DNA of 64,000 nucleotides, from the IMG/VR virus record IMGVR_UViG_3300001419_000001, positions 1 through 64,000 of that record. One strand, written 5' to 3'. Below, in pieces: positions 9,684 to 62,992 of this stretch. Numbering within the stretch: position 1 is the first letter of the stretch; each line of letters starts with the position of its first letter. The notes beneath the pieces are model-generated. The model saw only the letters and a list, made by a program, of their open reading frames with translations. It searched no databases and had not been told where the DNA came from. This DNA is from an uncultured virus (IMG/VR IMGVR_UViG_3300001419_000001). Lineage: Duplodnaviria > Heunggongvirae > Uroviricota > Caudoviricetes. Both the position numbers and the translations under genes were made by a program.

Positions 9684-9849
9684 ACACCTCCTTCCAATGT
9701 TGAATCTTTTTTAACACTTGCTCTTGTCCGAACAGTACGCCTCTTTCGAACTCCCCTTTTCTTAGGTCGTTCGGCGTTATTGTCCCGATTGCTTTCCTCA
9801 GTGCGTCCATCAGTTCCTGACTGATGAACAGGTTCTGTGTTGGCTCCAT
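9661..9849 (-). CDS. Hypothetical protein (T7 gp6.5-like position)
   Basis: ISQELMDALRK...LFGQEQVLKKI; GGAAG SD; synteny. Confidence 0.55.
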   Translation of the reverse strand: MEPTQNLFISQELMDALRKAIGTITPNDLRKGEFERGVLFGQEQVLKKIQHWKEVFDGRQRK

Positions 9850-9974
9850 TGCTTACTTCCGTATACATGTTATATAAAAAATACAAATCTGAATTGCGAT
9901 CAATCAGTCCTCTTTCGACTCTATACTTGATTGCAGCCATTCTAATTGCACTACTGACTGCATCTGTAATGCCT

Positions 9975-20936: not shown

Positions 20937-21294
20937 TTTTAATTCTGTCTAAGAGAATCTGCTGATGTAAGACCATGCACTTGGGAATCTTGTGGATCTG
21001 ACTGGTTTCGGCTGGGCCAACAGTTGATGCAACCACATATTGATTGGCATCTTCATGGATTAAAAAACCAACTGTGTACATGACAGGCAATTGAGTCTTG
21101 CTGTACTTCTTTGTGTCTGACATCTCCATCCATTCTGAACCTCCAATTGTTTGAGCATCAACCCAAGAAAAATATATAATTGGTTTTAAATATTTAACTG
21201 AAGAAGTATTGTGATTCAAGGACTTCATTGATGTCAAAGTCATCTTTTCTCTCCGGGATGTCAGGTAATCTGATTTCATATTTCTTTTCGACAT
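20929..21294 (-). CDS. Conserved phage hypothetical protein (true start probably later)
   Basis: W.DA....W...TVGFL...IPK.MV pattern common in phage proteins of unknown function. Confidence 0.6.
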   Translation of the reverse strand: MSKRNMKSDYLTSRREKMTLTSMKSLNHNTSSVKYLKPIIYFSWVDAQTIGGSEWMEMSDTKKYSKTQLPVMYTVGFLIHEDANQYVVASTVGPAETSQIHKIPKCMVLHQQILLDRIKND

Positions 21295-23626
21295 ATGATT
21301 TGAATTGTTTCAAGGGATTGTCTGTGTGAATCTTTACAAACGATTCTTTCAGAATCTTATCCATGATGTCCACATATGGACCATAGGTACCATATGAATC
21401 ATGAACAAAACTAAATGCCTTGATACCTTGCAGCCACATCTCATGTATGGTCATGAACATATGGGCTGCGTCCCAACTATGAATGAAGTTGGGAGATATG
21501 GCAAGATACTGTGCATCTCCATCGAGATCCTTGCTCAATGTGGAGAACACAAGTTGTTGCTTGTTGAACAACTCAGCATAAGAGATACGTTCAATGATTT
21601 GATTGTACACATGCTGAACAACAAAGCCACTGCTTGTTTCCCAAAGCAATGGTTTGTTTGTTGCGTTGATTAAACGAGCAACTTCTCTCAAGTAGTCTTT
21701 GCCCTTGTTGGGTTCTTCCATTGTACCTTGCAATCCACTTTGCAAAGCACGGGACAACTCAACTATTGCACTACCTCGCTCTTCCTTTGGAACCCAATCA
21801 ACATGACCTTCTTCTTTGACATACTTTTGTATGCCGTAGAAGGTTAGACCATAGGAGTCACACATGGTGCTTCTCTTTGCGACAGATCTTGGAAGTTCAT
21901 CATGCCAATACTCTTTGAATTTATCATACCATTCAACATCATCAATGTTGTTGGAGATGATTTCATAAGTCTTGTCTGCCACATGTTGATACAGATCTTG
22001 AGGCTTGTCACTTGGCAAGACATTGGTTAACTTAGCCAACTTCTTGTCTCGCATGATTGCAGCCCAGTGCTGCACACCATTGTTTGCACCATCCTTTTGA
22101 ACAGGCAACTGAGTCATGCCATCGGTTCGACACAACTCAAAACAAGCAGCAAGTCTTTGAAATGATGGGTTCTTCTTCTTTGCATTGGATACCCATTCTT
22201 GATTATTGAGTGGATCTTCTGCAATGGATTTGATCATGTCCATATTGTCATCAACCCACCTGACTCTTTCTTCATAGGTCAACTTGTCCTTGTCGAACAG
22301 GTTGGCGGTATGAACCTTGAGCCACCACAGTCCCTTCTCCGTCTGCTGGATTGGTTCTGCGAAGTGGATCAATGCACGATCAAAGTCGATGCCTTGGCAT
22401 GACAGAAGTTCACATACGGTGTATGCTCTGCCTCTGAAGTCCAAGGTGTAAGGCATGTAGAAGAAGTCATTGAGAAGAAGTGTCCGAGCAAGAGACAGAC
22501 GCACAATCATTCTGCTGCGTGCCTGTTCCTCCTTGTACCACTCACCCCATGCTTCAGTGGATTCCGACATCCACAATGCCTTTTCTCTTTTTGTGCCATC
22601 TTCTGGGTAAGGACGAGAGAATGCAAAGTCTTTCTGCGTGTAGGCAGGAAGGTTTGCAATCTTGTAGTCAAACTTGAACATGGTGGACATGACTTCAAAT
22701 ACTTTCTTGTTGATGGACCATTCAGTCATCATCAAGGCATTGATGCCATCAATAACCATATCAGAAGGCTTGGACTTGTAGTCTCTTGGATCACAGCCAA
22801 TGGGATGATATCTCTTGATCATCTTCTTTCTGATCCAAGGATTCAAGAAACCACCATCCTTGTCCTTGGTATGCAATGCAGGAGGGCAAAGCATTGGTCT
22901 GTAGACCATGCTTCCAGTCTCAAGCATCTGATGCCTATTGCCTAGTTCCTTGAGTACATCTGGAGCAAATGAAACAAGAAGAGACTTCTTGCGTCGTCCG
23001 GTCCAGACAACCTTGCCTTCCAAGATGTCGGAAGACAATGCAATGCGTAGCATGTTGTGACCAAAGTCTTCCTTCTGTTTGGGAGTGTATTTATATACCA
23101 TTCCCATTTTCTTAGTGAAGGCCCTGGCCCTCTTGGGTGTCCAGTTCTTGATGAACTTGGATTGTCTCAGCCAATCGTCCTTGAATTTCTTCTTGGCTCT
23201 TTGGTATGAGACAATATTGATTACATTATCTGCAACCAACTTGGCAATTGTTTGTGCGCTGGGTGCAGACAAAGGTACACCATGAACAAAGTCAATGTTT
23301 GTCATGTTGGTTCTGCTTAGAAACAATTCAATCACTGCTCTTACAGTGATGTCAGCCATCTTTGCAGCACCAATAGACAACAAAGGAGGAAGCCACTCGG
23401 GATTCTTTGGACCACTACATACCTTGTCTATCCATTGTTGATAGAATGGAGTGAGGTGGATGACAGCAGACTCAAGAAGCAACTGCTCAGGTTTGCCTTC
23501 ATCCTTCACTCTATCCCACTCTCTCCAATACCTTTCAATTCCTGCGGTTAGAAGATCCTCTTCCCACAGGAGTTGCTGGTCTGTCTTTTGTTTCTTTTCT
23601 TCTGAACTTAGTTTGTCCCAAAGCAT
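21194..23626 (-). CDS. T7-like single-subunit RNA polymerase (810 aa)
   Basis: PMLCPP, DFRGRAY, motif A DGANNGVQH, QDLY, motif B RSVAKRSTMCDSYG, PNFIHSWDAAH, motif C VHDSYG. Confidence 0.97.
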   Translation of the reverse strand: MLWDKLSSEEKKQKTDQQLLWEEDLLTAGIERYWREWDRVKDEGKPEQLLLESAVIHLTPFYQQWIDKVCSGPKNPEWLPPLLSIGAAKMADITVRAVIELFLSRTNMTNIDFVHGVPLSAPSAQTIAKLVADNVINIVSYQRAKKKFKDDWLRQSKFIKNWTPKRARAFTKKMGMVYKYTPKQKEDFGHNMLRIALSSDILEGKVVWTGRRKKSLLVSFAPDVLKELGNRHQMLETGSMVYRPMLCPPALHTKDKDGGFLNPWIRKKMIKRYHPIGCDPRDYKSKPSDMVIDGINALMMTEWSINKKVFEVMSTMFKFDYKIANLPAYTQKDFAFSRPYPEDGTKREKALWMSESTEAWGEWYKEEQARSRMIVRLSLARTLLLNDFFYMPYTLDFRGRAYTVCELLSCQGIDFDRALIHFAEPIQQTEKGLWWLKVHTANLFDKDKLTYEERVRWVDDNMDMIKSIAEDPLNNQEWVSNAKKKNPSFQRLAACFELCRTDGMTQLPVQKDGANNGVQHWAAIMRDKKLAKLTNVLPSDKPQDLYQHVADKTYEIISNNIDDVEWYDKFKEYWHDELPRSVAKRSTMCDSYGLTFYGIQKYVKEEGHVDWVPKEERGSAIVELSRALQSGLQGTMEEPNKGKDYLREVARLINATNKPLLWETSSGFVVQHVYNQIIERISYAELFNKQQLVFSTLSKDLDGDAQYLAISPNFIHSWDAAHMFMTIHEMWLQGIKAFSFVHDSYGTYGPYVDIMDKILKESFVKIHTDNPLKQFKSYVEKKYEIRLPDIPERKDDFDINEVLESQYFFS

Positions 23627-25989: not shown

Positions 25990-26312
25990 GAGTTAGACTC
26001 CTGTTCAAGAAACATTTGTGGCAAATCAATATGATCATCTTCATTGTCACGCTTGGTTTCAATTAAGTTGATATTATTAATAAGCCAATCAGTAAAAGGT
26101 TGAAGTTTATTCCTAGGGAAATATCCATGGACTCCCATTCCAATGAGATCATGGCGAATAAGGGCATTGTCAATTATTGCAATCTCAACTGAATCAGAAT
26201 CTGAATATGTTCCTTCCCCAGAGATAGCAGAAAGGTATATATTATTATCTTTGCTGATATAATATTTTGTTCGATGGATCCAGCCATCATATCGTATAAA
26301 TGGATAACTCAT
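25986..26312 (-). CDS. Hypothetical protein
   Basis: Likely start MSYPF with AGGA SD. Confidence 0.5.
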   Translation of the reverse strand: MSYPFIRYDGWIHRTKYYISKDNNIYLSAISGEGTYSDSDSVEIAIIDNALIRHDLIGMGVHGYFPRNKLQPFTDWLINNINLIETKRDNEDDHIDLPQMFLEQESNS

Positions 26313-26499
26313 TGTCTTTCCTGTAGCAAGCAAAGGGGATCCAATCCTTTCCCTTGAGGATCCAGCCATCATAGGTGTAATCCTCAATCTTCCCTTGTTT
26401 CAACAAGTCTTCCAGTAAAGTGAACTTCTGAGTAGGAAGAGTCCCATTCAAATTCCGAAGGCTCGTCTTCCCAATGCTCTTTGACATCCCTTCTTTCAC
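26287..26499 (-). CDS. Hypothetical protein
   Basis: GTGA overlap with the upstream ORF, AGGAG SD. Confidence 0.5.
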   Translation of the reverse strand: MKEGMSKSIGKTSLRNLNGTLPTQKFTLLEDLLKQGKIEDYTYDGWILKGKDWIPFACYRKDNELSIYTI

Positions 26500-26702
26500 G
26501 GAGATACTCCTCTAGATAAGAGTTCAATGTCAATGCGATCAATTTCTTGCTGCATTTCAGACAGAAACTCATTGGAATCTGGAAAATCGACAGGCAATTC
26601 TTGAGCATTTGCCATTTCCTTTATCATAATAAACACATTCCGTGCAATCACAAGGGATTGCGTATCAAATTCTTCAAGATTTTCTGGAGGTTTAAGCATC
26701 AT
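26496..26702 (-). CDS. Hypothetical acidic protein
   Basis: 68 aa, first ORF after the tRNA pair. Confidence 0.55.
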   Translation of the reverse strand: MMLKPPENLEEFDTQSLVIARNVFIMIKEMANAQELPVDFPDSNEFLSEMQQEIDRIDIELLSRGVSP

Positions 26703-26773
26703 TTACATCATGCTTCCTTTCTGTATACTAGGTTATTGGGATCTGTATCATAACTATATACAATACAAAGATA

Positions 26774-26846
26774 TAGGACCACTGGGACTCGAACCCAGAC
26801 TGGATGGATTTTAAGTCCACTGCCTCTGCCGTTGGGCTATGGTCCC
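26774..26846 (-). tRNA. tRNA-Leu(TAA), short variable loop, no encoded CCA
   Basis: GGGACCA TA GCC..GGC A GTGGA CT-TAA-AA TCCAT CCAGT CTGGG TTCGAGT CCCAG TGGTCCT A. Confidence 0.85.
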
Positions 26847-26912
26847 GGTGGGACTCGAACCCACAACTTACGGATTAAAAGTCCGCTACTCTACCAATTG
26901 AGTTACGAGACC
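26840..26912 (-). tRNA. tRNA-Lys(TTT)
   Basis: GGTCTCG TA ACTC..GAGT A GCGGA CT-TTT-AA TCCGT AAGTT GTGGG TTCGAGT CCCAC CGGGACC A. Confidence 0.93.
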
Positions 26913-26956
26913 GTACAGTTGAGGGTAGTTTTATTACCCACAATGCGTATTATTTA

Positions 26957-27151
26957 TCAGTCATTGAACTCAGCCTGCCACTCTTCATCAGTTACTCCAC
27001 TAATGATGAACTCCCTGTCAGAAGGGGGCAGGTGAGGAGCAACGACTTGGATATGCTCTCCCTTCAACCAGTTGTCATATTGCTCTTGGGTAATGTCAAT
27101 AATCTTTGTTCTTTTGATACCCGAGAACATGCTAACTCTAGTGATTTCCAT
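26957..27151 (-). CDS. Conserved phage hypothetical protein
   Basis: TAAGGAG SD; R.S..SG...W..G..IQ...PHL...DREFIISG.T.EEW pattern. Confidence 0.75.
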   Translation of the reverse strand: MEITRVSMFSGIKRTKIIDITQEQYDNWLKGEHIQVVAPHLPPSDREFIISGVTDEEWQAEFND

Positions 27152-27165
27152 GGGTGTCTCCTTAG

Positions 27166-27239
27166 CGTTCCCGGCTGGACTCGAACCAGCAACCTACTGC
27201 TTAGAAGGCAGTTGCTCTATCCGATTGAGCCACGGGAAC
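27166..27239 (-). tRNA. tRNA-Arg(TCT)
   Basis: GTTCCCG TG GCTC..GAGC A ACTGC CT-TCT-AA GCAGT AGGTT GCTGG TTCGAGT CCAGC CGGGAAC G. Confidence 0.93.
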
Positions 27240-27976: not shown

Positions 27977-28044
27977 AATGATCTCCTTGAAAGAGGAATA
28001 AGCAAGACGGTGAGTGGTCTTACCACCCGCCTTCGCCCTGCAAA

Positions 28045-28119
28045 TAGGCCGGGCAGGATTCGAACCTGCGTCTCCCCAGTTATAAGCCGGGGCGCTTTAG
28101 GCCGCTGAGCCACCAGCCC
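28045..28119 (-). tRNA. tRNA-Ile(TAT)
   Basis: GGGCTGG TG GCT..AGC..CCCGG CT-TAT-AA CTGGG GAGAC GCAGG TTCGAAT CCTGC CCGGCCT A. Confidence 0.85.
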
Positions 28120-28170
28120 AAGTATTATTTTTTAAGCGGTTGATCTTAAACTCAACCTGTCTTGCCAAGA

Positions 28171-28402
28171 AAAGGAACCTAGGGTATTTCTACCCTAGGC
28201 TCCACGATAGTAATTGCCCACAAGAAACGCACTATCATTGTCTCTTGTGTGTCTCTAGGTATCAAGACCTATTGACTTGGCGGTTTTTTGTCCCGCTATT
28301 TATTAACCGCCTACGGGCTAGGTTGCTTGCGGTGCCCCTTCTGGCTTGATCCAAGGCTAGGGCGTAGCCTAAAGGAGCCTAGGGTATTTCTACCCTAGGC
28401 TC
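28171..28402 (-). repeat. Two copies of a 32-bp palindromic element (28171-28202, 28371-28402); terminator-like GAAA hairpins
   Basis: aaaggaRcctagggtatttctaccctaggctc, one mismatch between copies, exactly 200 bp apart. Confidence 0.88.
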
Positions 28403-29526: not shown

Positions 29527-31317
29527 TTAGCAACCAAGGATGTGACGGGACTTGGCAAACCGCTTGCGGTCAGCACCCGGATAATTCAGGGGCGTGACCT
29601 TTGAGGGAATCAGGATCTCACGATCCAAGAACTTCTGATCCACCCGACTGATGCAAGCCTTGAAGGCCTGCCGAGCCCATCGAGCGTGGGCGATGGGAGT
29701 TCCGATGGAGTCATGGATTGGCGCAATGCGAATCCCTGCCTCTGCCGCCATGAGAGCCATGAAGTGGATTGCACTAGCATCCACAGAGTGGATGACATTC
29801 GGGCCTGCCGCAGCATCTGAGGACGCTGCGTGAAGTGGCTGGAATGAGATTCGATGACGCTTGCCATCGAAGGTCACACTCACATCCCACGGCTTGGCAT
29901 CCATGTCGACGACCATGCCGCGGTTGAAGACACGGCATCCCGATGGCGAAGTCCAGTTAAGGACTTGACCATCATTACGACGGTTACGAGATGCCTGCTT
30001 GATTGCCATCATGGAAGGACGAAGACGGCTGGTAAGACCAGCAGCCGCCTTGGACCCGAACAACGAAGTCTCGTATGCCCGAGCCACATCACTGGCAACA
30101 CGAACTGCCAGAGACCATCCAAGAGCCTGCCACACACCAGCGTACCTCTCGTTGAGGTCCAACTTGGAGACCTTTTCAAGAGATCCCACTATGTAATCAC
30201 CAGCATTGTCCACATACTGGATTGGGCTGGTCTGCGGGTTCTTGAGAATTGCACCCCGAGTAAGCGAGGGGTTTGCTGCCGAGTAGATCATCGGAACAGC
30301 AAACGTCTTGGCGGTCTTCCGATCAACGAACATCGGGTTGTCCCTGACATGAACAGGCAGGAGACGTGCCTCGTTGACGTAGGCAGACATTGCAGTGTAC
30401 AACGACTGCGGCGAGTCTGAAGGGTAGAGGTTGGTGAGATGGCACAGAGCCTCGTCACCAGTGAACCAGCCATACCACGCTGGACCAGATGCACTCTGGT
30501 CCTGCTGGAGAATGTAGCCAGAACAACCCTCTTCCTTCATCTCGCGAATTGCCTCAGCAGCCCGCAATGCACAGAAGGGCTTGCTGTCCTTGCAGTCCCT
30601 GACAAACTTCACGGGATCTGCAAGGATGTCCTCGTAGTTGTCCTCCGTGACACCGTACTCCTTCTTGATGACTTCCAGAAAGATCTGGATATCATCGTCC
30701 GAAGCAGGCAACTTCTCAGCGAAGTCACACGACGCACGGTGGGCATCACCACCTTGATAGGAGGCAACGCCGCGCGAGTCAGTGTACAGACGATAGCGGA
30801 AGTCTGGGAACAATGGGAGGTAGTAATTACCCTCACCAAAGTTCGTGAACTCCTGAAGCATCAGGAGTTCCATTTGGTTCCGCTTGGGGTCAAAGAACCC
30901 CTCAGCAGCCAGAGTCCGCATCGCCTGAAGCACCAACTTGTTCGGAGCGAACTCAGTCTCCGACAAGTACGTCACAGCATCCTTGAAGGCATCTGGCAAG
31001 TCAAGGTCCAGAACACCGTCAGGTGCCATCGACCGCCGCCTCGTGGCTGCGGCACTACGCTGAAGACGAGCCGTGGTCTTGCCGGTGGACTCGACATCGT
31101 TGTTCCGAATGAACAACGATGAGTAGTTGTTACCAACTTCACCGGCCTCGTCGATCGCATCACTACCTGAGAGGGAGAACATGCTCAGGTTGCCATCATC
31201 GAGACCCATCTGCAACAACTGCTGCAACCCATCGCGGTCATCGACGCCGGTATGTTCGGCGACCCGTTGCATGAACTTGGATGCACGCAACACATTGTTT
31301 AACAGGTATCTATACAT
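29527..31317 (-). CDS. Second, short divergent single-subunit (T7-superfamily) RNA polymerase (596 aa)
   Basis: PDFRYRLY...SYQGGD, motif A QDQSASG, PQSLY, motif B RKTAKTFAVPMIYS, WTSPSG, GPNVIHSVDAS, motif C PIHDSIG, in the T7 order; AGGAG SD. Confidence 0.9.
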   Translation of the reverse strand: MYRYLLNNVLRASKFMQRVAEHTGVDDRDGLQQLLQMGLDDGNLSMFSLSGSDAIDEAGEVGNNYSSLFIRNNDVESTGKTTARLQRSAAATRRRSMAPDGVLDLDLPDAFKDAVTYLSETEFAPNKLVLQAMRTLAAEGFFDPKRNQMELLMLQEFTNFGEGNYYLPLFPDFRYRLYTDSRGVASYQGGDAHRASCDFAEKLPASDDDIQIFLEVIKKEYGVTEDNYEDILADPVKFVRDCKDSKPFCALRAAEAIREMKEEGCSGYILQQDQSASGPAWYGWFTGDEALCHLTNLYPSDSPQSLYTAMSAYVNEARLLPVHVRDNPMFVDRKTAKTFAVPMIYSAANPSLTRGAILKNPQTSPIQYVDNAGDYIVGSLEKVSKLDLNERYAGVWQALGWSLAVRVASDVARAYETSLFGSKAAAGLTSRLRPSMMAIKQASRNRRNDGQVLNWTSPSGCRVFNRGMVVDMDAKPWDVSVTFDGKRHRISFQPLHAASSDAAAGPNVIHSVDASAIHFMALMAAEAGIRIAPIHDSIGTPIAHARWARQAFKACISRVDQKFLDREILIPSKVTPLNYPGADRKRFAKSRHILGC

Positions 31318-31928: not shown

Positions 31929-32189
31929 TCAGCACGCCCACTTTCTTCTTGCCTTACATGCTCGTTTATCAGGAGTCTTTTTACAATCAATATTGAATTT
32001 CTTGATTTGTCCTAGGTTGCGGGCACAGAAGGATTTCTTTCGTGGACCCCCTCCCGGCTGGGGTGGCTTGAGGTTGGAGCCTGTCTTTCGGTTGATCATG
32101 GCTCTTCCCTTGGCGGTAAGCCCACCCTTGGGATCTTTACATTTGTTTCCGATATTGCAACCTTTCATTGCACCTTTCTTCTTTGCCAT
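31929..32189 (-). CDS. Small basic protein (DUF6321-like)
   Basis: KDPKGGLTAKGRA...GSNLKPP...RKKSFCAR...ARRKW.C. Confidence 0.7.
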   Translation of the reverse strand: MAKKKGAMKGCNIGNKCKDPKGGLTAKGRAMINRKTGSNLKPPQPGGGPRKKSFCARNLGQIKKFNIDCKKTPDKRACKARRKWAC

Positions 32190-35100
32190 TACGGTCCTCC
32201 TAACTGTTCTGGTGGTTTGGCAGGATTGATACTCCTTGGTCCCTCCATTGGGCTAGGAGTTGTGGTTGGTTGTGGCTGAGGTGCCGCAGGAGGCTCTGAG
32301 ACGCCCTCTGCGGGACTTTGTAGGTTTTGGAGTAGTTCGGTAGCCTTGGGAGGCTGGAACGGCATAGGAGGCATCTGAGCGTCCATAAACGAAGGCATTG
32401 GTTGGACTAGGTTCTTCATTCCTGTTGGGAATGCTTCGTTCAGTATTGCCCTAAATAGGCTTCTTTCTGTCTCTAACTGATTATCCATCAAGGTGTTACC
32501 TACATTTATGGGGCTTGTGTTCCTTCCTCTATTGGTTTTATTCTTGTTTTGTTTGAATTCTGGGTCAATGACTGATGCAATATAGTATCTTGTAATTGGG
32601 TCAATAAATGGAATTAACCTAGCCGCAAAATCAGTAGCCTGCCCTAATGAAAATTCACCATCTCTATTGATGGCATCTTGACCAATTTGAATACTTTTTG
32701 CTACACCGCTTAAGATTGCGGCGGCTGCTGGAGGCAGTCCTGCCAAGGTCATGTCATAGATTGAGATTTTATCACCAGCAATGGTCTTGCCAGCAATAAT
32801 GGGAAGTAGTGATGCAACGATGCTTGGTAGCATTCTTGTCGTAAAGAATGGGTTTCGTGCAACAACGGTTGTGAGAAGCGTATAGTCTTTTATGTTTGGT
32901 CCTTCTTTCTTCCATCTTTCTATGTCATCTTCTGTAATGACACCAACAGCCCACAACAATGCAAGATTGTAAATAATATCAAAGAACCCTGCTGTTATAA
33001 CCTTGGTTGCAAGGATCCCACCTGTTGTTCTGCCATAGGATTCTAAGGCATGTTGGGTTACAAACAACTTTGGAAACGATCTGTACAGATTCATGAATGA
33101 TAGGATAGGACGACCTTCTGTCTGCCTATCCATTGTATTTCCTTCTGTAATAGCCTGTCTCATCAATGAGACTTGGAATTTACCAACAGCATTCAATGCT
33201 TCGTATAGATCGTTCTTTGTCAGCCCACCAGAGTTTGGCATCTTGTCAAACAGTCTTGATGTTACAGATTCTTCAATCATTCTTTGGATTTCGCTGATAT
33301 CAAAGAACTCTCTTCCCAATATTCCAGTTTTCGAGATTCCGTTAAGTTCAGTTACAATGTACTTTAGAGCCTTGATTGTTTTTCGATCAAGCAAACCAGA
33401 CTCATGCATGTATTGGACAACCAGTTTTTCAGATCCCCAAAGATCCAAGATCCTAGTAGTTCCTACTTCTACTTCCAATCTCTTGTACATTTCTGGTCCT
33501 CTTGGACCATCATATTGTTCGATAAAATCAAGATACTTCTCTAATTTGTTGATTCTTCTAATCAATGCTACCTGTGCTTGTCGCATCATTGCGGCTCTTA
33601 ATGCAGGTTCTACTATAAGATGAGAGTCTTTTATTCTTTTCCAAAAAGAATCAATAGCACCTTTTACCTTTATTGGTTTTGTTTTTTTGAATCCATTTTG
33701 ATCTAGACTGCTGACGGCTTCTTCTTCATCTTTAGTAATTAATTGATGTTCTAAGAATCCTCTTGTTGCTGTGTCGATATCGAACAAGGCTTGAGGGACA
33801 GATGTGAATATTGAATTGTTAAGCAATCTATTTCCAAGTTTTCGTGAGATGACATTTGTAAATAAGGGCAATATACCAGAGACCACATCTTTCATGAATG
33901 CTATGGGATTGCCTCCATAGATTGTGGTAACAACGGTACTTAATGTACCTTCGTTGATTAATGCTGCGGCGTTTCGGTTTGGACCCCATAGTGCAGTGGT
34001 AAAGAAGTCTGCTGCACGCAATCCAAAATTTTCTTCACCCGATCCTTGAGTTTCAATTACTCTAGTTGCAGCACCAATTGCAAGATCGTGTTTTCTCTGG
34101 ACCTCATCCAATACACTATCCCAATCGGAATCTTGCTTTGCGCCTTTAATTGCTTCAATGAGGTTTGCAAAACTAACTCCCCTGACTCCAGACAGGTCTT
34201 GGATGGCTTTTCGGTTATAGGCAGATCTTGCCATTGTTCTTTCCATACCTACAATGATTGATTTTAGATCTGTTGAAAACCCATTTCTAAGGATGCTTCG
34301 TTCGTTTGGATTCAAACCACTTGCCTCGATAAAGATATCCTTGGCAGTTACATCCAATGACTGGGCATTAGGCATAACAGTACTATGACCTTGTGAGTTT
34401 ATTAAATTAAGTACTCTCAACCTAATAGGAGAATTCTTTTTGTCAAGAACATTGTTTTTAAAATACTTTGGTGGTTTTGTAGAACCATAAAAGATGTATG
34501 GCAGTCTGCCTCTTACAATATCTTGTTCTTGTCGTACCGCCGATTCACTAACTTGATTGTTTAAGTTACCCTGTAGGTATTTAATTATCGTATTTCTTTG
34601 ACTTGAATTTAAAGATTTAAAGATAGTACTATATGATTTACCAGAGTTTGCTTGTCTTAGGATTCTAGTTGCGGCTTCTAAAAGATGCTCTTTGGCGGCT
34701 TGCCAATTGCTGTTTGTTGTGTTTAACTTTAAGGAATACTTAAACGAACTAAGAGTCAAAGTGGTATTTGGGTTCTTTTCTTTGTATAACTCAAAAGCAA
34801 AAGACTCAACTTCATCGAGAATAAGTCTTTGTGCTTCATTTAGTTTGATTATCTCACTTTGGATTTTATTGTAGAATTCCTCAATTGGGCTGTTGTTTGA
34901 ATATGCATCGCTGATACTAAACATGCCACCGCTCAGGTAGAGGGAGTATACATCTACCATGCCCTCATCTTTCATGTTGTCTTCTACCTTTTTGGTGTAT
35001 AGTTTGGACAATGCTTCTTCAAATCTACCAGCACTTTCCGAATCTTTCTCAAAGAATGTGTTGTTTATTCTCAAAGCAATCATATCTTCAGGCGAGACAA

Positions 35101-38100
35101 AGCTTGAAGTGTAGGTTTCATACTCTACAGCAAGATCTACAAAGTTTGAAATGTTGCTTGCATATGTTTCAGCATACTGTTTGGCAAGTTCAAACATCTC
35201 ATTTGTAAGATCTTCACCAATTGGTATTTGATTTCTATCAGATGGCTTTCCTAAAAGCATATAATAGAAGGCTGCACTGCGAATTAATTGTGCTTCTCTT
35301 TGGTTATAGGAGTTTTTAATTCTTTCTGACATCAATACAACAGGTCTTGACCATTGTTCAATGTAGTTTTTGTCTTGAAGAATGCCCCCAACCTTTTCAC
35401 TGAAGATTCCACCACCCTTAACCGTGTTCATAATGAAGCCAAGTGCAACCAAAATTGACTCGGCAGACGCATAGGTAAGGTTTGCACTGCTACCACCACC
35501 CAAACCTCCGCCAAGTTTACCTTGTTCTCCGACTTTTCTTGCTGTTCCGGTCAAGAATGTTTCAATAATCCAGTTTCTTACTCTTGTTGCCTTGGGCATA
35601 TCCCTTACAAGTCTTGAAATTACAGAAAGATTATCTGGTCTTACGCCTCTAATCTTTGAGATTCTCTCCAAAACAAAGGTAGCAAGTGCTATTCTTTCAT
35701 CTTTGCTTCTTGGTTTTCTTGTAATCTCAACTTGACCAGTCTCACTACCATATTGAACCAGTCTATTTATGGTTTCGATGTACTCTTTTGTGTCCAAACC
35801 TAGAATTGTATTTGCTGGTAGTTCAGCCAACTCGTTTTTGTAATTTATAAGTGTGGCTTGCTCCTCTTCACTAAGATATTCCACCCTTGATTCTAGTGCA
35901 TCCACTGTATTGTACTTGCCCAAAAGGTCAACAATTTTATCACTGTCTATTATTCCGGTTCCTCGCTCCAATTCTACAAGAGGAGTGCCGAATGTTCCTG
36001 TTATATTGTCAACCGCAGCCCTAGATGTGCTGTATGTATTGCCAAAGTTAAACATGACTTCAACAAGGTTGTCCATATACTCCATTGCTTTGCGATTTGA
36101 TTGTCTAAATACCTGCATTCTTTGTGTTATGGACGAGGCAATTCTTTTTATTCTATTGAATGCTCGCTCCCACCAACTGGTTGCCTCATCAACAACATTG
36201 TATTTTTCTCTGAGTTTGTTAATATTGTTGATGACACTCTTGTTATTGATGGTTCTTGATATTAAAACAAATGCTCCCCACTCTGCAAGAAATTCTTCTG
36301 CATTTGTGGTATAGTGATCAAGCAATGCATTTATTTCACCCTTGTCTCCAGCATACATGGAAGTTACCATGTCGGTAATTGCTTCTTTTCCTTCTTTGGT
36401 TCTGAATGCTGCAATAAATCCACGATATGCTTCACTTTCGGTTTCCAAATGCCTGAGCCTTGCAATGTGTGAAATCTCATGTGCCATGACTTCCAATGCT
36501 TCAGGTACGGCTCTACGCTTTAATAGTTGTGGGTTGAGTTTGATTACAAACCTATCGCCATATCTCTGACTTAAACCAGCACGCTCAAGGCTAGGGTCTA
36601 AAACAATTGATAAGTTGTTTGCAAACTCCTTGTTGTGAGTTAGAATGATTCCAAACATGCCTCTATACAACTCGGCAGTTTCTTCTGTTATTGCTCCTTG
36701 TTGAACAAGTGCAGAGATTTGTATTTCAATATGTTGTCCATTTGATTGGAATGCATCAGTAAGACCGTCGTCTTCGACAAGTGTCTCAATATTGTTGTCT
36801 GTTAACAAGATGCCAGCCTCTTGGGTGTATTGTTTGTTGGCATTCTCAAGGGCTTGCTTTGCGAGTTGAACTTCTTCTCTGCTAGAGGTATCCTCAACAC
36901 CAATAGCCTTAAGAACCTTTGGACTAATGTTTATAACTTCAATTGGTCCATTCAACTCAACAAATCTTTTGGCTTGATGGGAGAATTTGTTTCTAGGTAC
37001 ATCTCTTGTAACAGCGTTCAAATAATCATTTATAAATAAAGAAGCATCTCGATAAATCTTTTCAAACTGCTTATTATCCATAGCAGATCCAACATAAGAT
37101 CTTAATCTTTGTAGTCTTGCTTCTCTTTCTTCAACTTGAGACATGATGATGATTGCTGGAATAAGATACTTGTTGTCGCTTGTTAATAGAGTTTCAAGTC
37201 TTTCTGCTTCTTCTGTAAGTCCATACATCCTTGCCGTCTCAATTGCTCTTGAGATTTTACCCTGCCATGCTCTATCAAATGCGGTGCCTCTTGGGTCAGC
37301 ATCTTTTCCTGCAACATAAAAACCAGCATCATATACTTCAACAGGCAAACCAAAATCGCCACTCATTCCCACATTGTATGTTGTTCTTAATGGAGAAGTA
37401 GAGCGAGAGTGCAGAATTGAAAGGATATCCATTTCATCAGCATAGGCCATTCTCTGTGTTTCGTAGAATCGTCTTCGTTCTGCATTCATAAACACCATAT
37501 TCTCATTGTCTACCATGCCAATATCTGTTCCAAGTGCTGTTGCTAGTTCTGTGTTATACAACAATACTTGGTTTTGAAGTTGGGTAAACATGTTTTGCAA
37601 ATCTTCTGGTGTTAGTTTGTAGATTGTATTGCCATTGGTTCGTGAAGTATCGAACCTAGGCATTCCACCATCCCGTCCCCTTGCTTTAGGATTCTTAGCA
37701 TTGTCAAAATCTATTTTATTTCCAATTTGAGTTTCTTGTGTAACTTCATCAATGAACAAGTAAAGATCAAACTCTTCTCTTCTTTGCGTTCTATCCGATG
37801 TGAAGATCTCTCTAAATACTGCTTGCTGATGTTCTTTTGGTACAGAACTCAATAGTACAAAGCCATTACCATCCTTTTCCAGCGATTTAAAGTTTTCTGG
37901 GTCTACCTTTTTCATGTACTCTGTTGCTATTTTTCTGCCTTCAGTTTCATATACAACATTGTAAATCATCTGTAAGGAGTCGATACTCTGCACTGTAAGA
38001 GTTGTTATTCTTGTAGAGCGTTCGTCTGATGAAGGTTCTCCAGAAGCAACGATGTTGTTTGTTGGCTCAAGACCTAGTGTAATTGGCTTAAGGACATTGA

Positions 38101-41100
38101 CTCCTCTTTTAGCAAAATAAAACAACATGTCAATGTAATGTTTTTCTTGTAATGTCTTGCCCTCAATACCAATCATCTTGCCAAATTCAAGATAAGATCT
38201 TGATTCAGCCGATACGCTGTCGTGAAATGACCATAGTTGGGTCAATGCTTGATACATGTTCAATGCGTGTGACTGAGCCAATACATATTCTTTTCTTTCT
38301 TGTCCCGGCTTGTTTTTAAGTTTAGCCATTTTTCTAACGTAAGGACTGATTGCAAGATTGTTGATTTTCCAAATGGTATATAGTTTTGCCCAGTTCTGTT
38401 CTTCTACAAGATCTTTATGACCATGGGTCATGCCAAATTTTTCAAGAGTGTATTGAAGGTTGTTGGCTCTCAACTCCAATCGTCTAGATGTGTTTCCAGT
38501 TGTCATCTCATAGATGCCATCAACTGGTGTGGGATAGACATATGGAGCCTTGGAGTTTTTGTACCTATTGGCATATCCTCTTGCTTCAGATGGAATAACA
38601 TCATTGACAGAAGTTATCTCTTTGTCCATTCTAGCTACCTTGTCTGCTTTGGCATCTTGGATCAACTTATTATAGAACATCTGTTGAAGTGACATGATGC
38701 CTCTTTCCTGCCAAGGAATGGCTGCATACTCTGGCCTGAATGCACCAAGCCCCTTGATGCTTTTTTCTGATCCGGGGTTGTATTCAATATCCATTGCAGT
38801 ATTAAGTGTTCTAGATGGGTCAACCAAGAATCGGATTGCATTCTTAAGCAAGCCACCATTGCTTCTTCTTAAATCAATTGCGTCTTTTGATAAACTTGGT
38901 TCATTGCGAATATAGTCAATATATGATTGGTCTTCTCTAGTTGATCGCTCATACCACTCTTGCATAAATCCTTCTCTTGTTTCGGATTCAGCCATGTTGT
39001 AGTTACCAAACTTTGGTGCATATCGTGGTGATAGTTGCATAGCAATATGTCTTGCCATAAGTTTTTGCACCTCAAGTTCAGCCTTATCTCTACTCAATTT
39101 GCTAAGATTGTTTTTATTGAATCCCCACATGGCATACTTCTGATCATCTTTTCCACCGGGGGTATTTTCTCTTTCGACTGATGACAGTTCTGAGTTGATA
39201 GGTTGGAACTTATGCCCAACAAAATACCCACGCCCACCACTTGAATCAAACCCCATTGTAAAATAGACATTGAAATCTTCAAAACCAAGAATATCCGATT
39301 CCTCAATGCGACGGCCAAGGATATCGGAATGTTCTTGTATTCTACCTCTTATGCCATCATTCTCGATACCTCTTAATCTAAAGGGAACTCTTTGCAATGC
39401 ATTCAATGCTATTAGAGTAGGTGTTGTCTTATACCATTCTTCTTTGCCCATTAGAATAATATTAAGTTTCCTTGCTTGCTCATCTCCCAGTTTAATAAGC
39501 CCATCTTCAGTTTTTTCTAAACCACCAACAAACTCTATTGCTTTATCAATTCTTTCTTGATATTCGGCTCTTACTGTTTTAATATCAAGTTTTCTAATTT
39601 CAGCAATAAATTTAATTCTTTCTTCAATGGCTTCTTGTAAGAAATTTAAGGAGAACATTCTTTCTGCGGTTATAGTGTAACCATTTTCCTTAGCCTTTTG
39701 TCTAAGATTTTTTGTCCAATCTTTTTGGTATACATCCCGCAATTCTGTTGATATTGCCGCTGCTAATTGTTGTCTTTGCTCAGAAGTAACACCACCCAAT
39801 GCTTCATCTAGAATATTGAATTGAAGATATGCTTTGGTGTTCATCAAGTGTTGAGCAATAAAATCTGCATCAACTCCCGTAAGTCCTACTGGTTTGGATT
39901 CAGACATCCAATTTTCAATACCCTCTCTAACTGCTTTCAACCCACCAGAATATAGTCTAGCAATAACTGCATTCTTAAAACCTTCTCTTGCTTCTTGAGC
40001 AGATTCTGTTAAAAACTCTTTTAGTCTTCGTGCCTGCTCCGTTCCATTTGTATCTTTCTGTGAGATATATACCTTTTCAATTTGATCAAGACTATCACGC
40101 AAGAGAGTTACGGCTTCTTGGTATCTATCTTTTGCTTCATCCTCAAGACCAATATCTCTTAACATGTCATCCAACCTAGATCCATCTTTGTCAAGGTACA
40201 TCAAAGACAAAGCAGCCATGTGGTGGGCACCGTTCATGTTGAAGTCAAAGTAATTACTTCTACTAAAACCACCCTCTTTATATGCTTTGATTCCTCTTTC
40301 AAGTGATTGATATAAAATATCTTCGCCTAAAAATGGATATGTTTTGACATGAGCAAACAATGGACCCATACCCGAAAGAACTGCGGTTGCTGACAACGAC
40401 CCCGGAGAAAGTGCATCTTCCTTGAACATTCTATTTTTGGTATTTTCATCCAAGAATATTTTTGCTCCGGGTGCATATGTCATTGAGTCGTGTTGCCAAA
40501 GAAGTAGCAACTCTGGCATATCCAATAGTGCTTCAATTGTCCTTGCCCTAAGATCTTCAATTGTTGGTAGTTTATTAGATAAAGCCCTGTTATTTGTATT
40601 TGGATTCAAGCCCATTGATAACAGATCTGGTCTTCTATCGGTTAAGACTTCATCTGGATCTTCTGTGAGATTCTTGTAGGCATTGATAACAGACTCTGGA
40701 TCGTCGATGTCGGAATTAAGAATATGTTGAATGCGTTGTCTTAATCTGTAATCTACAAATGCAGATTCAATGTCTGGCAATGCCCTTGGGAAAATATGAT
40801 GGACCTCACCAACAACCGGTGCCCTAAAGATAAGAGACTGATATACCTTCCTATCTGGTTTACCGCCTGATGACAATAGGTGTCTATTAGCCCTAGCACT
40901 TATTTCTTCACTAGGTTTAGAATTTAATGATGGTTTAAATCCTTGCCGGTGGTTTGTAATAATTTGTGCAATACCACGACCAAGGCTTGTTGCTACGGCA
41001 TAGTCAATGTTTCCATTTCCAAAATCAACAATATCAAAGTCTTTCAAATCACTGTACTTCTTGATTGTGGCAATGAGGAATTCCATAATGTAGTCATCTT

Positions 41101-44029: not shown

Positions 44030-44041
44030 ACTATCTCCTTG

Positions 44042-46741
44042 TTAACAATCCGTTCGTTTTCTTGCATCAGCAATAAACTGATCAAAGTCAGATTGAGGTT
44101 CTGTTTTAGTTAGATCAATTGGTGGGGTATCTGTTTCCGAAACACCTTCATCTACAGGTGTTGTGATTTGTTCTAAGGGTAATGTAGGCGTACCCTCGGC
44201 TTGTTCACTTGCTGGTGGTTTAGGAGTCTCAGGAGCAGCCTCAGGAGCAGCCTCAGGAGCAGCCTCAGGAGCAGCCTCAGGAGCAGCCTCAGGAGCAGCC
44301 TCAGGAGCAGCCTCAGGAGCAGCCTCAGGAGCAGGTCTAGTCGCTTGTGTTGCTTCCCTTTCTTCTATCAATCTTCTTACAATACTTAATGTATTTTTGT
44401 GTATGTTGGCATTTAGATTTTCAACCATGGTAATGCCTTCTTTAGCCAACTCTGTATCAATAACACCATCATCATCTCTGAAGATATCCAAGAACTCCAA
44501 GGCTTGTGCATTTTCATTATAACTATTAAGATCTATTTTTAAGTCTGGTAGATTTGTCTTTTCTCTTGCTGATTTATATATTTCAGTAATTCTTTCTGCT
44601 GCTTCTGTGATTGCTTCAGGATCAGCACTAATCTCTTCATAAGTATCTTGAATCAATTCTTTAAAGGCATCTATATCTGTTGATGCCAATCTCATAAGGT
44701 CGGTTTCTGAGATGCCTTTTTCCTCAAGTTTATTTCTCATAATGAACTCAATTGAAATAGCCCTTTGTAGAGCCTTCATGTCTTCATCACCAACACGAAT
44801 GTTTCTTTCTCTTAGACGATCTACTGTATGGGTATGCAGAAGAATGGCTGCTTCTTCTGTTGTCAATTGCACGCCTTCTGGGACAGAATCAAACACTGAA
44901 CTGATTATGGAATTGAGATCAATGTTGACACCCTTGTTGGCTGCTTGTCGTTGAAGGGCTGACTGCAATCGTATTACACTTAATGGCATTGACTTATCCC
45001 CAGTCATCTGCTGCCAAGCGAAGTGTTGATGGAGTTGAAGGAATGCATTGAAATACGTCTCTTGGATAACCTCAATTGGTACATCCTTCACATTGAGGTT
45101 TGCTTGTAACTCAATCATTTGCTTGAGAGCAGGGTCTATTTTTCTGGTTGCCTTATCCCAAAGTGCTGGACCAATTTGATCAGCACCTATTCCTTCAATT
45201 GCCTGTCCCAATCCCAAGTTGATTCCCCTGAAAACTTTTCCAAATACTATCTGACCAACACCCTCTTCAAGCATTTCACCCCAAAGTCTTCCACTGCTCC
45301 ATTCCATATTGTCTGTAATCTGGTTTTGTATATTGTACAAGGCACCTTCTACAAGACCTTGCCCAAAGTCAGTGAAAACCGAAGTCATGAACTTACCCGC
45401 AGTAACCTCTGATCCCCATTGTACACCTTCAACAGCCAGTCTTCTTGATAGGATACTGTTGGTTACAATATAACCCCAGTTACTTGGGACCATGAGTGCT
45501 TGGTATGTTCTTAGATTCTGCAACAATGAGTTTGTTTTCTTTGTGGCATTGGCTAGATCTCTGGCATTGTCAGCCATCCTAGCAGCACTGTATACTCCTC
45601 TGCTTAAAGATCTTGCTTTGTTTGCTCTGACTAGTGTTGTAACGGCTCCTACGCCTGCGTAGCCGCCTGCTGATGCTAGGGTAAGGGCAAGTTCTACAGG
45701 CATGTCGGCAGATCTAAAACTCTGAATGATGAACTGTTTTGCAAAATCTAATTTATTCTCAACCCAGTTTTGATCTCTTGCTCTAGATGAAAGTATTGCT
45801 TGGATGTGGGACATATCCACGGCTTCATTGATAGCGTATCTAAACTCCCAATGGTTTGGTGTCCTTAACAATTGTTCTACATTTACTCCAGCAACATTTA
45901 CTAGATATGAAGAGTAGTCTGGGTGGTATTCTTGCATGAGTTCCCAAGCCTTTTTAGCATCCCATCCTTCTTGTTTTTGCTCCCCAAATACTTGAGTTGG
46001 AAGGATCCCCTCTTCGCCAAACAAGGCTCTAATATTTTCAAATAAAAAGAAGTTTGTATCTACATCTTCCATTCCCTCTCGTCTATTATCGACAAAAGGA
46101 ATGTAGTCAAGGATCTTTGCCCAAGTTGAATCATAGGCAGTTGATCGTTTTCTAAATGCTTCTTCTTCTGGGGTTAAGCGAGGAAACAACTCTGGGTTCT
46201 CTCTCTCAAGAGTTCCAAAGTATTGTTCTCCTATTGTGTATAATCTAGTAGTTCTATAGATAGATGGGGTTTCAACAGCAGATAAAGCAAGTTGGTTGAG
46301 TCTTCCGTAGGATGCTTGATCAAACGCTTGCTGCGGATCAATATCTCTAGAAACAAGGTTTCCCGTCTCTAAATCGAAACCAATAACAGGAGCCAGTGGA
46401 CCAAGGTCTTTGCGTAGTTTCTTTTGGTTTTCTGTTAATCCACCAGAATTGTCTAACATTTTGTTTATAAAATCATATGATTCTTGTCTTGACTGGGCTT
46501 GTTGTTCTTTCATCTCTTGTTCTAATTGAGATCTTTGAACCATACTGGGATCTACGCTTTCATAAAAACTAGTATAAACAACAAGGTCTGAAACAAATTT
46601 ATTAAACTCTTCCATATTCTCATCTGTTTCTTCTGCTATGGATCCAGCCATCATATCGTATATTCTTTGGTTTTTTTCCTGCCTAAGCCTTTCTTGCTCA
46701 GATGGCTCGTTCTTCATTTTCCACCAGTCATATAAACTCAT
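44042..46741 (-). CDS. Internal virion/ejection protein (899 aa)
   Basis: Lies between two other large internal proteins; Gly/Ala-rich amphipathic middle; only Cys seen is the last residue. Confidence 0.65.
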   Translation of the reverse strand: MSLYDWWKMKNEPSEQERLRQEKNQRIYDMMAGSIAEETDENMEEFNKFVSDLVVYTSFYESVDPSMVQRSQLEQEMKEQQAQSRQESYDFINKMLDNSGGLTENQKKLRKDLGPLAPVIGFDLETGNLVSRDIDPQQAFDQASYGRLNQLALSAVETPSIYRTTRLYTIGEQYFGTLERENPELFPRLTPEEEAFRKRSTAYDSTWAKILDYIPFVDNRREGMEDVDTNFFLFENIRALFGEEGILPTQVFGEQKQEGWDAKKAWELMQEYHPDYSSYLVNVAGVNVEQLLRTPNHWEFRYAINEAVDMSHIQAILSSRARDQNWVENKLDFAKQFIIQSFRSADMPVELALTLASAGGYAGVGAVTTLVRANKARSLSRGVYSAARMADNARDLANATKKTNSLLQNLRTYQALMVPSNWGYIVTNSILSRRLAVEGVQWGSEVTAGKFMTSVFTDFGQGLVEGALYNIQNQITDNMEWSSGRLWGEMLEEGVGQIVFGKVFRGINLGLGQAIEGIGADQIGPALWDKATRKIDPALKQMIELQANLNVKDVPIEVIQETYFNAFLQLHQHFAWQQMTGDKSMPLSVIRLQSALQRQAANKGVNIDLNSIISSVFDSVPEGVQLTTEEAAILLHTHTVDRLRERNIRVGDEDMKALQRAISIEFIMRNKLEEKGISETDLMRLASTDIDAFKELIQDTYEEISADPEAITEAAERITEIYKSAREKTNLPDLKIDLNSYNENAQALEFLDIFRDDDGVIDTELAKEGITMVENLNANIHKNTLSIVRRLIEEREATQATRPAPEAAPEAAPEAAPEAAPEAAPEAAPEAAPEAAPETPKPPASEQAEGTPTLPLEQITTPVDEGVSETDTPPIDLTKTEPQSDFDQFIADARKRTDC
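44228..44334. repeat. Perfect 12-bp tandem repeat (CTCAGGAGCAGC, ~9 copies) encoding (APEA)n
   Basis: Read directly: 8 full units plus 11 of 12 nt. Confidence 0.97.
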
Positions 46742-51756: not shown

Positions 51757-51767
51757 TTAAAGTCTCC

Positions 51768-52448
51768 TTAAGGTCTTGCTAGGTAATATGGTGCAGGTGT
51801 TTGACCAACTTGTGGTGCTGATGTGCCCATGCCGGAAATAGAGGCATACGCGCCTAGACCTGACGCAAGACCACCTGCTGTTCCTGCAATAATATTCATT
51901 GCCCCATAGGATTCTCCTATTGGCTTTTGACTGGATAACTGTAGGTTGGGCATGATTAAATCAAAGCGTTGTTGATTCATCATATTCTCCATTTGTCTCT
52001 TGATATTGTTTTCTGTTTGTTTATAGTTTCTATCTGACTGCATTGTTTGATTTAGGAAGTTTGCACTTTGTGCTAGGCTCAATGCCTTGGCTGTGCCTCC
52101 AGATATTTTGGATGCTGCTAGTTGATTACCTAATGCACCTTTCATTTGTCTGTAGGTTTTGCTCATCTCCCCATCTGCAAATGATTTTTGGAGGCTAAGT
52201 GCTTTAAGTGAATCGCTCTCAAAAAGATATGCTGCTCGTTGAATGGCAGCATTTCGTTCCATTTGTTGTTGCTGGGCATAAGAGGCATTGAATAATTGCT
52301 TACCATTGTTGATGGCCTTTTGCATTTCTCCCTGAATCCAAGCCTGTCGTGCTTGTTGCTCTCTTCTTCTAGCAGCAGAATTGCCTGTAATACCTTGAAA
52401 AATACCGCTTACTATGCCAGCACCTAGTGCAATTGCTCCTAAATCCAT
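51768..52448 (-). CDS. Internal virion protein (T7 gp14-like)
   Basis: Gly/Ala-rich hydrophobic ends, Gln-rich middle, AASKISG; first gene of the ejection cluster. Confidence 0.7.
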   Translation of the reverse strand: MDLGAIALGAGIVSGIFQGITGNSAARRREQQARQAWIQGEMQKAINNGKQLFNASYAQQQQMERNAAIQRAAYLFESDSLKALSLQKSFADGEMSKTYRQMKGALGNQLAASKISGGTAKALSLAQSANFLNQTMQSDRNYKQTENNIKRQMENMMNQQRFDLIMPNLQLSSQKPIGESYGAMNIIAGTAGGLASGLGAYASISGMGTSAPQVGQTPAPYYLARP

Positions 52449-52451
52449 ATG

Positions 52452-54116: not shown

Positions 54117-54334
54117 TATGTTGATTCCTTGATCTTGAAGGGTGCAGCCTCGGACATTGCCTTGGTTACTTCTTCAAGTGCTTGACTTGGGATGCCATCT
54201 GCTGCTTCTCTATTGTCATTGATGATGCCACGGATGACGGTATATAGCCCCGGAGTACACTTGTCAGGATCCTTGAGATCCCGAACAAGTGAATCCAGTA
54301 GCATCTCATTTAAGATCTGTACTTTACTCTTCAT
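54113..54334 (-). CDS. Terminase small subunit (T7 gp18-like)
   Basis: Short helical protein coupled (ATGA) to terL; L..DL.D....TP.LY..I.....DN pattern. Confidence 0.7.
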   Translation of the reverse strand: MKSKVQILNEMLLDSLVRDLKDPDKCTPGLYTVIRGIINDNREAADGIPSQALEEVTKAMSEAAPFKIKESTY

Positions 54335-54422
54335 CGAATAAGGCTTCTAATCTTAGAGATGGGAAATATACATCCTGCGATGTATCCGGCTAGGCACATC
54401 AGCCCAGCAAACCACAAACTTC

Positions 54423-54980: not shown

Positions 54981-55200
54981 CTATTCTCTCCTTTAAAGCA
55001 GCATCTGTTGCAACAAATTCAATCTGCGATTTGGTCAACTCTTCTACAATTTCTTTTAAATCTTCTAGTTGACCTGTGTTGTAGACTTGATTTGCCTGAT
55101 ATTCACCTACTCTTACAAATACTCCAGCCAAACCTATAGCAATAATTACTATCTGAAGCAATTGTAAAACAGTTGATAAGTCTGGGTGCTTTCCTTCCAT
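54937..55200 (-). CDS. Single-TM coiled-coil protein (holin/lysis candidate)
   Basis: N-terminal TM then coiled coil; lysis-gene position before the terminase. Confidence 0.5.
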   Translation of the reverse strand: MEGKHPDLSTVLQLLQIVIIAIGLAGVFVRVGEYQANQVYNTGQLEDLKEIVEELTKSQIEFVATDAALKERIDALRVRMDRLDRSN

Positions 55201-55212
55201 TGTATCTCTCCT

Positions 55213-57521: not shown

Positions 57522-57530
57522 GGTATCTCC

Positions 57531-59378: not shown

Positions 59379-59380
59379 TG

Positions 59381-62980: not shown

Positions 62981-62992
62981 GTTGATTCTCCT

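Follow-up and report, generated by a model that had tools for sequence, protein, structure and literature searches.

An organelle-type overlap of tRNA genes, in which a whole acceptor strand is shared, is present in a bacteriophage, and the observation is real and conserved. The DNA analyzed (here called the window) comes from a virus record of 67,122 bases that has direct terminal repeats and is rated complete; it comprises positions 1 to 64,000 of that record. Nearly all genes of the window are on the minus strand, as are its four tRNA genes, which were found with ARAGORN. The overlapping pair consists of tRNA-Lys(UUU) at 26840-26912 (minus strand) and tRNA-Leu(UAA) at 26774-26846 (minus strand), each 73 nt long; the pair spans 139 nt, and Lys comes before Leu in the transcript. 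Read in that direction, Lys is GGTCTCG...CGGGACCA and Leu is GGGACCA...TGGTCCTA, the start of Leu lying within Lys. The shared heptamer, GGGACCA (26840..26846, read 26846->26840 on the minus strand), is both positions 67 to 73 of Lys, that is, GGGACC plus the discriminator A, and positions 1 to 7 of Leu, that is, its complete 5' acceptor strand. A reading made from the sequence alone (the sequence-only reading) had claimed this 7-nt sharing between tRNA-Lys(TTT) and tRNA-Leu(TAA), and ARAGORN and the sequence itself bear it out, with both genes on the minus strand.

The same reading held both cloverleaves to be complete, and this was confirmed by ARAGORN and by full-length matches to the Rfam tRNA model (RF00005). 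Lys scored 74.8 bits and Leu 58.1 bits, each over positions 1 to 71 of the 71 in the model, compared with a gathering score of 29 bits. Leu was scored alone; a joint cmscan drops it through the removal of overlapping matches of the same clan. The acceptor stem of Lys is GGUCUCG/CGGGACC, with one wobble (U5.G68). That of Leu is GGGACCA/UGGUCCU, with G1.U72, and is accompanied by a discriminator A73 and a 5-nt variable loop. All seven shared bases pair with the Leu 3' strand UGGUCCU, six in Watson-Crick pairs and one in a G.U pair; the chance that a random 7-mer would pair at all seven positions is about (6/16)^7 = 0.001. Reading the CCA inside GGGACCA as an encoded 3' end of Lys was considered and rejected, as the acceptor stem would shrink to 4 bp. 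CCA is encoded in none of the four tRNAs, so the host CCA-adding enzyme would be needed whichever tRNA matures.

We searched for relatives of the window with its 596-amino-acid (aa) RNA polymerase, which is encoded upstream of the tRNA cluster, and obtained 3 loci from viral_contigs and 24 from metagenome_contigs. The position of Lys was reached in only two of them, L018 and L010 (the same contig as L022); L009 (100% identity) and the 92-93% relatives L012-L017 stop before the Lys/Leu position, and the others end earlier or without a tRNA. The polymerases of L018 and L010 are each 61% identical to that of the window. L018 carries tRNAs Ile, Arg, Lys, and Leu, and its Lys (9737-9808) and Leu (9802-9874) have the identical 7-nt overlap with the same heptamer; the overlap sought in relatives is thus present in a second phage. 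L010 carries Ile, Arg, and Lys with no Leu. Its Lys ends in ...CCACCGGGACCA, directly followed by a ribosome-binding site and a gene, and the alignment shows that exactly Leu positions 8 to 73 are missing, a clean 66-nt deletion that leaves Lys whole. The heptamer GGGACCA is invariant in the window, L018, and L010. Exact and degenerate patterns of the junction matched 0 loci in the IMG/VR viral_contigs besides the window's own and near-identical records.

These data also bear on an assembly artefact, in which two copies of GGGACCA and a spacer would have been merged into one. A short direct repeat is collapsible in principle, but we give this explanation almost no credence. The repeat, at 7 nt, is far below assembler word sizes, and contigs from three other runs (2/3 studies) span the junction without a single indel. 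X4 record 17, a contig of 724 nt, covers 26300-26920 with 26 substitutions and 0 gaps; X1 record 3 (26730-26886) and X6 record 27 (26810-26920) have no indel at the junction. L018, clearly a different phage, has the identical junction, and in L010 the Lys gene ends in the same heptamer and then runs into unrelated sequence. That the 7-mer is not a collapsed one, which the sequence-only reading had set down as a point to confirm, therefore holds on the contigs of other runs and on the L018 junction.

Between L018 and L010, polymerase identity is 73%. A maximum-likelihood tree of 11 polymerases, rooted at the midpoint only and with L034 and L028 on long branches, makes L018 and L010 sisters (support 97/93), places the window and L013 outside them (87/88), and has L019 branching further out. 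Because the window lies outside the L018-L010 pair, the overlap would be older than the split of those two. The simplest history is that the overlap was present in the common ancestor and that the L010 lineage probably lost Leu later, with Lys kept intact. The known carriers of the overlap are two divergent lineages plus near-identical variants, and one sister lineage has lost Leu.

By its Pfam matches, the phage is a T7-like podovirus with a portal, a capsid-assembly protein, a nozzle, a terminase, and a gp14-like protein. The same phage encodes a primase-helicase, a family A DNA polymerase, and two T7-type RNA polymerases (PF00940), one of 810 aa at 21197-23626 (minus strand) and an early one of 596 aa at 29527..31317 (minus strand); the tRNA cluster sits between the two RNA polymerase genes. 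Two giant open reading frames (ORFs) with no Pfam match, of 3946 aa (32189-44029, minus strand) and 1672 aa (46741-51756, minus strand), adjoin the gp14-like gene and probably encode unusually large internal virion or ejection proteins. No close relative was found among GenBank phages, the best RNA polymerase identity being 28%, and the neighboring DUF932 gene, used as a query, returned distant loci only (26-30% identity).

The cluster begins with tRNA-Ile(UAU) at 28044-28120 (minus strand), which is kept in L010, L013, L018, and L019, and continues with tRNA-Arg(UCU) at 27165-27239 (minus strand); both were called by ARAGORN and Rfam. A 64-aa ORF (26957-27151, minus strand) lies between tRNA-Arg and tRNA-Lys in the window, where the gap in L018 and L010 is only 2 nt. 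About 50 nt upstream of tRNA-Ile, at 28174-28203 (minus strand), is a strong terminator-like hairpin of 13 pairs followed by a T run, so the tRNA cluster may start its own transcription unit.

The textbook tRNA-Leu is of the long-arm type, and the phage Leu is not. A pattern made from its D and anticodon arms matched at least 121 loci in genome_contigs; among the 80 titles listed, nearly all were Actinomycetota (among them Microbacterium, Rhodoluna, Ca. Planktophila, and Nanopelagicaceae), and four belonged to other groups. In 58 of 60 bacterial loci, ARAGORN called one lone tRNA-Leu(taa) of 74-76 nt, the other two loci being incomplete, and in 58 of 60 there was no tRNA neighbor within 150 nt. 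This actinobacterial short-arm tRNA-Leu(UAA) resembles the phage Leu in its D arm (UAGCCCAAYGGCAGAGGCA, with C13.A22), its anticodon loop (CUUAAAA), its 5-nt variable loop, its A73, its length of 73-76 nt, and, less exactly, its T arm, which is similar. The bodies of the bacterial tRNAs are almost the same as that of the phage Leu; among the matches listed, the best was identical to it at 63 of 73 positions, and the discriminator was A in 113 of the 116 resolved loci. The difference lies in the setting and the acceptor stem. The bacterial genes stand alone and have GCCCCCG-like acceptors, the 5' strands among the matches listed being GCCCCCG (44), GCCCCGA (23), GCCCCCA (12), and others, whereas the phage Leu is overlapped and has GGGACCA/UGGUCCU. 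GGGACCA was the acceptor strand of 0 of the 121 bacterial family members among the matches listed. Judged by sequence, the phage Leu is a member of the actinobacterial family whose acceptor stem has been refitted to the tail of Lys. Such refitting is hard to explain unless the Leu helix matters. The runs that contain the window sequence are labeled freshwater and estuary, and from these labels and the type of the Leu tRNA we take an actinobacterium of fresh or estuarine water to be the probable host.

Short Leu(UAA) genes are also annotated in the phages P-SSM7, P-RSM6, and ZC03 and in Acinetobacter phage vB_AciJM_313 (L001-L004). There, the spacer between the upstream tRNA and Leu is 3-4 nt in the first three and about 40 nt in the Acinetobacter phage, and in none of the four does Leu overlap the upstream tRNA. 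These short-arm Leu(UAA) genes have G1.U72 and A73, and the hosts of their phages are Pseudomonas, Prochlorococcus, and Acinetobacter, not Actinobacteria, in contrast to the cellular short-arm Leu family, which is almost wholly actinobacterial.

We asked whether the two genes are under selection by comparing stems among the three Lys (window, L018, and L010) and two Leu sequences. Standard pairs were found throughout, in 89 of 89 and 82 of 82 stem cells of the two structures. Compensatory changes occurred at six pairs, five in Lys and one in Leu; the one in Leu is pair 49-65 of the T stem, with a switch from C49-G65 to G49-C65 between the window and L018. Few sequences are involved, and the changes are supportive of selection on both tRNAs rather than proof of it. 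The X4 variant gave further signs of purifying selection on the tRNA pair. Of its 26 substitutions in the 621 nt covered, 25 were listed, and just one of these (26788, in the Leu T loop) falls inside the 139-nt pair. At the rate of the flanks, about 5%, some 6.9 substitutions would be expected there, for a Poisson P of 0.008, or P = 0.03 if the 26th, unlisted substitution is also within the pair.

Codon use differs along the phage genome. The early 596-aa polymerase gene (GC3 of 0.63) has TTA at 1 of 52 Leu codons, AAA at 0 of 26 Lys codons, one AGA codon, and one ATA codon, and its homologues in L018, L010, L013, and L019 likewise avoid these four codons. Regional counts were made on uncurated minus-strand ORFs of at least 100 codons. 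They gave TTA at 59 of 368 Leu codons and AAA at 154 of 257 Lys codons for region 32000-44100, and 103 of 436 and 148 of 231, respectively, for region 44100-64000, which holds late genes. In late structural genes, TTA thus makes up 16-24% of Leu codons and AAA up to 64% of Lys codons. Counts over whole loci were discarded, as they mix early genes, late genes, and spurious ORFs; the comparison by gene and region was used instead. The codons that are split between early and late genes are exactly those of the four phage tRNAs (TTA, AAA, AGA, and ATA). This codon use is consistent with a real need for the Lys and the Leu tRNA alike, and from their sequences both tRNA genes look functional.

Two acceptor helices compete for the shared strand, and we calculated nearest-neighbor energies for them on the natural sequences, with tertiary structure, modifications, and proteins ignored. 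When the window dimer was folded without constraints, the minimum-energy structure was not a double cloverleaf; therefore, defined states were compared. For the window, the energies were -39.9 kcal/mol with the Lys acceptor formed, -39.1 with the Leu acceptor formed, and -29.0 with neither, the helix contributions being -10.9 for Lys and -10.1 for Leu. For L018, the corresponding energies were -39.3, -37.8, and -27.5 kcal/mol, with contributions of -11.8 and -10.3. Lys is the stabler helix in both phages, by 0.8 kcal/mol in the window and 1.5 kcal/mol in L018. The Lys helix of L010, a phage that lacks Leu, consists of Watson-Crick pairs only and contributes -13.9 kcal/mol, so that it is 2-3 kcal/mol stronger than in the window and L018. 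A G.U pair is found in the Lys helix only in the phages that bear Leu, U5.G68 in the window and U6.G67 in L018. In both phages the substitution lies in the 5' strand, which is not shared, and the shared strand does not vary. Across these three sequences, the G.U pair in the Lys helix has the look of tuning, by which the Leu helix is able to compete.

One strand cannot occupy two helices, and hence the two folds are mutually exclusive. We consider it probable, although far from certain, that maturation is likewise mutually exclusive and that each Lys-Leu precursor yields either Lys or Leu. Lys and Leu would be transcribed as a single precursor, in which the heptamer would pair with either the Lys 5' strand or the Leu 3' strand to give two exclusive folds of nearly equal stability, and an irreversible cut would then fix the outcome of the choice. 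If the Lys helix formed, 3' maturation to A73, by an endonuclease or by exonucleases, followed by CCA addition would make Lys and destroy Leu. Formation of the Leu helix would instead let RNase P cut before G1 of Leu (after C66 of Lys), making Leu and destroying Lys. With each molecule giving one tRNA, the pool of transcripts would still supply Lys as well as Leu, and their ratio would depend on the relative strengths of the helices. We infer these cleavage steps from general bacterial tRNA processing, and we also infer that both tRNAs are actually produced. As to the 3' endonuclease RNase Z (TIGR02651), it was above the cutoff in 0 of five actinobacterial genomes, which are candidate relatives of the host. 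An RNA run (X20) contains one 220-nt contig from this region (26587-26805), which could be precursor RNA or contaminating DNA.

Counting against this either/or maturation is the order of the genes: with Lys at the front of the transcript, its fold can form while the Leu 3' strand is still to be made. The precursor might then always mature as Lys, leaving the Leu gene a tolerated passenger. Such a gene would be a relic in decay or would provide a 3' element, shaped like a tRNA, that serves only the processing or stability of the neighboring mRNA. The advantage of 0.8 and 1.5 kcal/mol for the Lys helix agrees with such an outcome, as does the L010 lineage, which lost Leu without harm to Lys. The only bacterial experiment on an overlapping precursor that we found is one in E. 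coli, reportedly that of Schuster, Betat and Morl in 2005. A later review describes it as using a Tyr/Cys precursor with a 1-nt overlap, from which the upstream tRNA was freed and the downstream one degraded (PMC4284800); this would favor a Lys-only result. Several observations are at odds with a passenger Leu, however. Across a divergence that has left the polymerases 61% identical, Leu has retained its anticodon loop, D arm, and T arm, with the compensatory change at 49-65. The Leu 3' strand is fully complementary to the heptamer in both lineages, unlike the acceptor that is usual in its family. The demand for TTA is far higher in late genes than in the early polymerase gene, and the Lys helix is weakened by a G.U pair only where Leu is present. 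On balance we regard production of Lys alone as unlikely.

Leu might instead be made from separate transcripts that start or are cut inside Lys, with full-length precursors giving Lys. An internal promoter for a phage polymerase or an endonuclease cut would produce such RNAs; with the Lys 5' strand absent, the Leu fold would be unopposed, and each molecule would again give one tRNA. The two RNA polymerases that the phage encodes could have a promoter there, which leaves room for this explanation. We think it distinctly improbable all the same. A scan limited to sigma-70-type promoters gave 9 promoter-like sites against 3.3 expected; the minus-strand sites, at 28265-28237, 27317-27290, and 26653-26626, include none within Lys. 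For a phage-type promoter there, no evidence was found, and in L018 and L010 the Arg, Lys, and Leu genes are 2 nt apart or overlapping, with little room for signals.

In metazoan mitochondria, same-strand tRNA overlaps of 1-6 nt are reviewed in PMC4284800, with the examples of human tRNA-Tyr/tRNA-Cys (1 nt), land snails (up to 6 nt), and the centipede Lithobius. As in the phage pair, acceptor-stem nucleotides on one strand are common to two tRNAs in one precursor, so a single cut cannot free both whole. According to that review, repair falls to the upstream tRNA, by template-independent 3' editing that adds A or CCA, the downstream one always being released intact, and alternative processing is excluded (PMC4284800). 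The phage pair differs in that its carrier is a bacterial virus and neither tRNA departs from the canonical form. Its overlap, at 7 nt rather than 1-6 nt, takes in a full acceptor strand plus the discriminator, and the shared sequence is G/C-rich and not restorable by A or CCA. Alternative processing, excluded for mitochondria, is for the phage the best reading, and a probable one.

Repair would have each phage precursor give both tRNAs, with the seven missing bases rebuilt on the remaining strand. Lys would be freed whole and Leu positions 8 to 73 would regain their 5' strand by templated 3'-5' addition of the Thg1 kind, or else Lys would be extended at its 3' end as has been proposed for centipede mitochondria. 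A perfect template would be at hand in the intact Leu 3' strand. No enzyme of this kind (Thg1-like, CCA-type nucleotidyltransferase, or RNA ligase) was found among the 53 phage ORFs, however, and Thg1 (PF04446) was found in 0 of five actinobacterial genomes that have the same Leu family, which are candidate host relatives only. Addition of A or CCA cannot restore GGGACCA, which has positions other than A and C, and to our knowledge seven templated additions exceed the documented cases. We judge repair, and with it the release of both tRNAs from every precursor, to be very improbable. If it were true, the phage pair would be the first natural substrate for a bacterial Thg1-like or similar repair and the first case of tRNA end editing outside organelles.

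The sequence-only reading had proposed that one precursor could give only one of the two tRNAs, the choice being made by alternative folding or by RNase P versus 3' processing. With helices that are nearly equal in energy, both genes conserved, and no repair enzyme found, this is the best-supported reading, and it is one that we infer from the genes and their energies.

Phage T4 has dimeric tRNA precursors (Pro-Ser, Gln-Leu, and Thr-Ile) that are packed head to tail, are cotranscribed, and do not encode CCA, as in the phage pair. RNase P separates the partners of the T4 dimers; they share no nucleotides, so both mature from one molecule. In mechanism only, the phage pair is also like bistable RNAs and attenuators, in which one strand has two partners and the choice between them decides the product. 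Unlike those, it has no known sensing of a ligand or ribosome, its outcome would be fixed by cleavage, and its products are tRNAs.

We gauged how common such overlaps are by a survey of all viral_contigs with a pattern made of a T loop and, 9-17 nt further on, a canonical D arm, a spacing that corresponds to overlaps of 1-9 nt. The survey covers two common motifs, and its counts are a lower bound. Of the 89 loci matched, ARAGORN called overlapping same-strand tRNA pairs in only 3: L199 (Asn/Asn, 5 nt), L177 (Asn/Asn, 4 nt), and L211 (Tyr/Thr, 2 nt). A short-arm Leu as the downstream partner occurred at 0 loci in this survey. In the literature, we found overlapping tRNA genes reported only from organelles, with no phage or bacterial case. 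The claim of the sequence-only reading that an overlap of a full acceptor strand is unusual outside mitochondria therefore stands as far as it can be tested, by a survey with 3 overlaps in 89 loci, all of 2-5 nt, and by the organellar cases found in the literature.

Two features of the survey matches are of separate interest. The tandem tRNA-Asn(GUU) genes of L177 and L199 may be smaller cases of the same phenomenon or may be decaying duplicates. Most of the 89 matches (L157-L245; e.g., L176, L160, L171, L186, and L197) are not tRNA pairs; they resemble circularly permuted tRNA-shaped modules, with a T arm, a short hairpin closing the would-be acceptor, and a D arm. Many of these have a recurring GGTTACTTC-like motif upstream, and in most ARAGORN calls no tRNA.

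Overlapping tRNA genes are usually seen as a quirk of compact organelle genomes. A conserved overlap in a phage offers a natural test, in a bacterial system, of how RNase P and 3' maturation choose between tRNA folds, and at 139 nt the RNA is small enough for direct in vitro work. It raises the question of whether any such tRNA repair exists in bacteria. It also raises the question of whether helix strength sets the ratio in which tRNAs are produced, and the G.U wobbles hint that in these phages the ratio may have been tuned.
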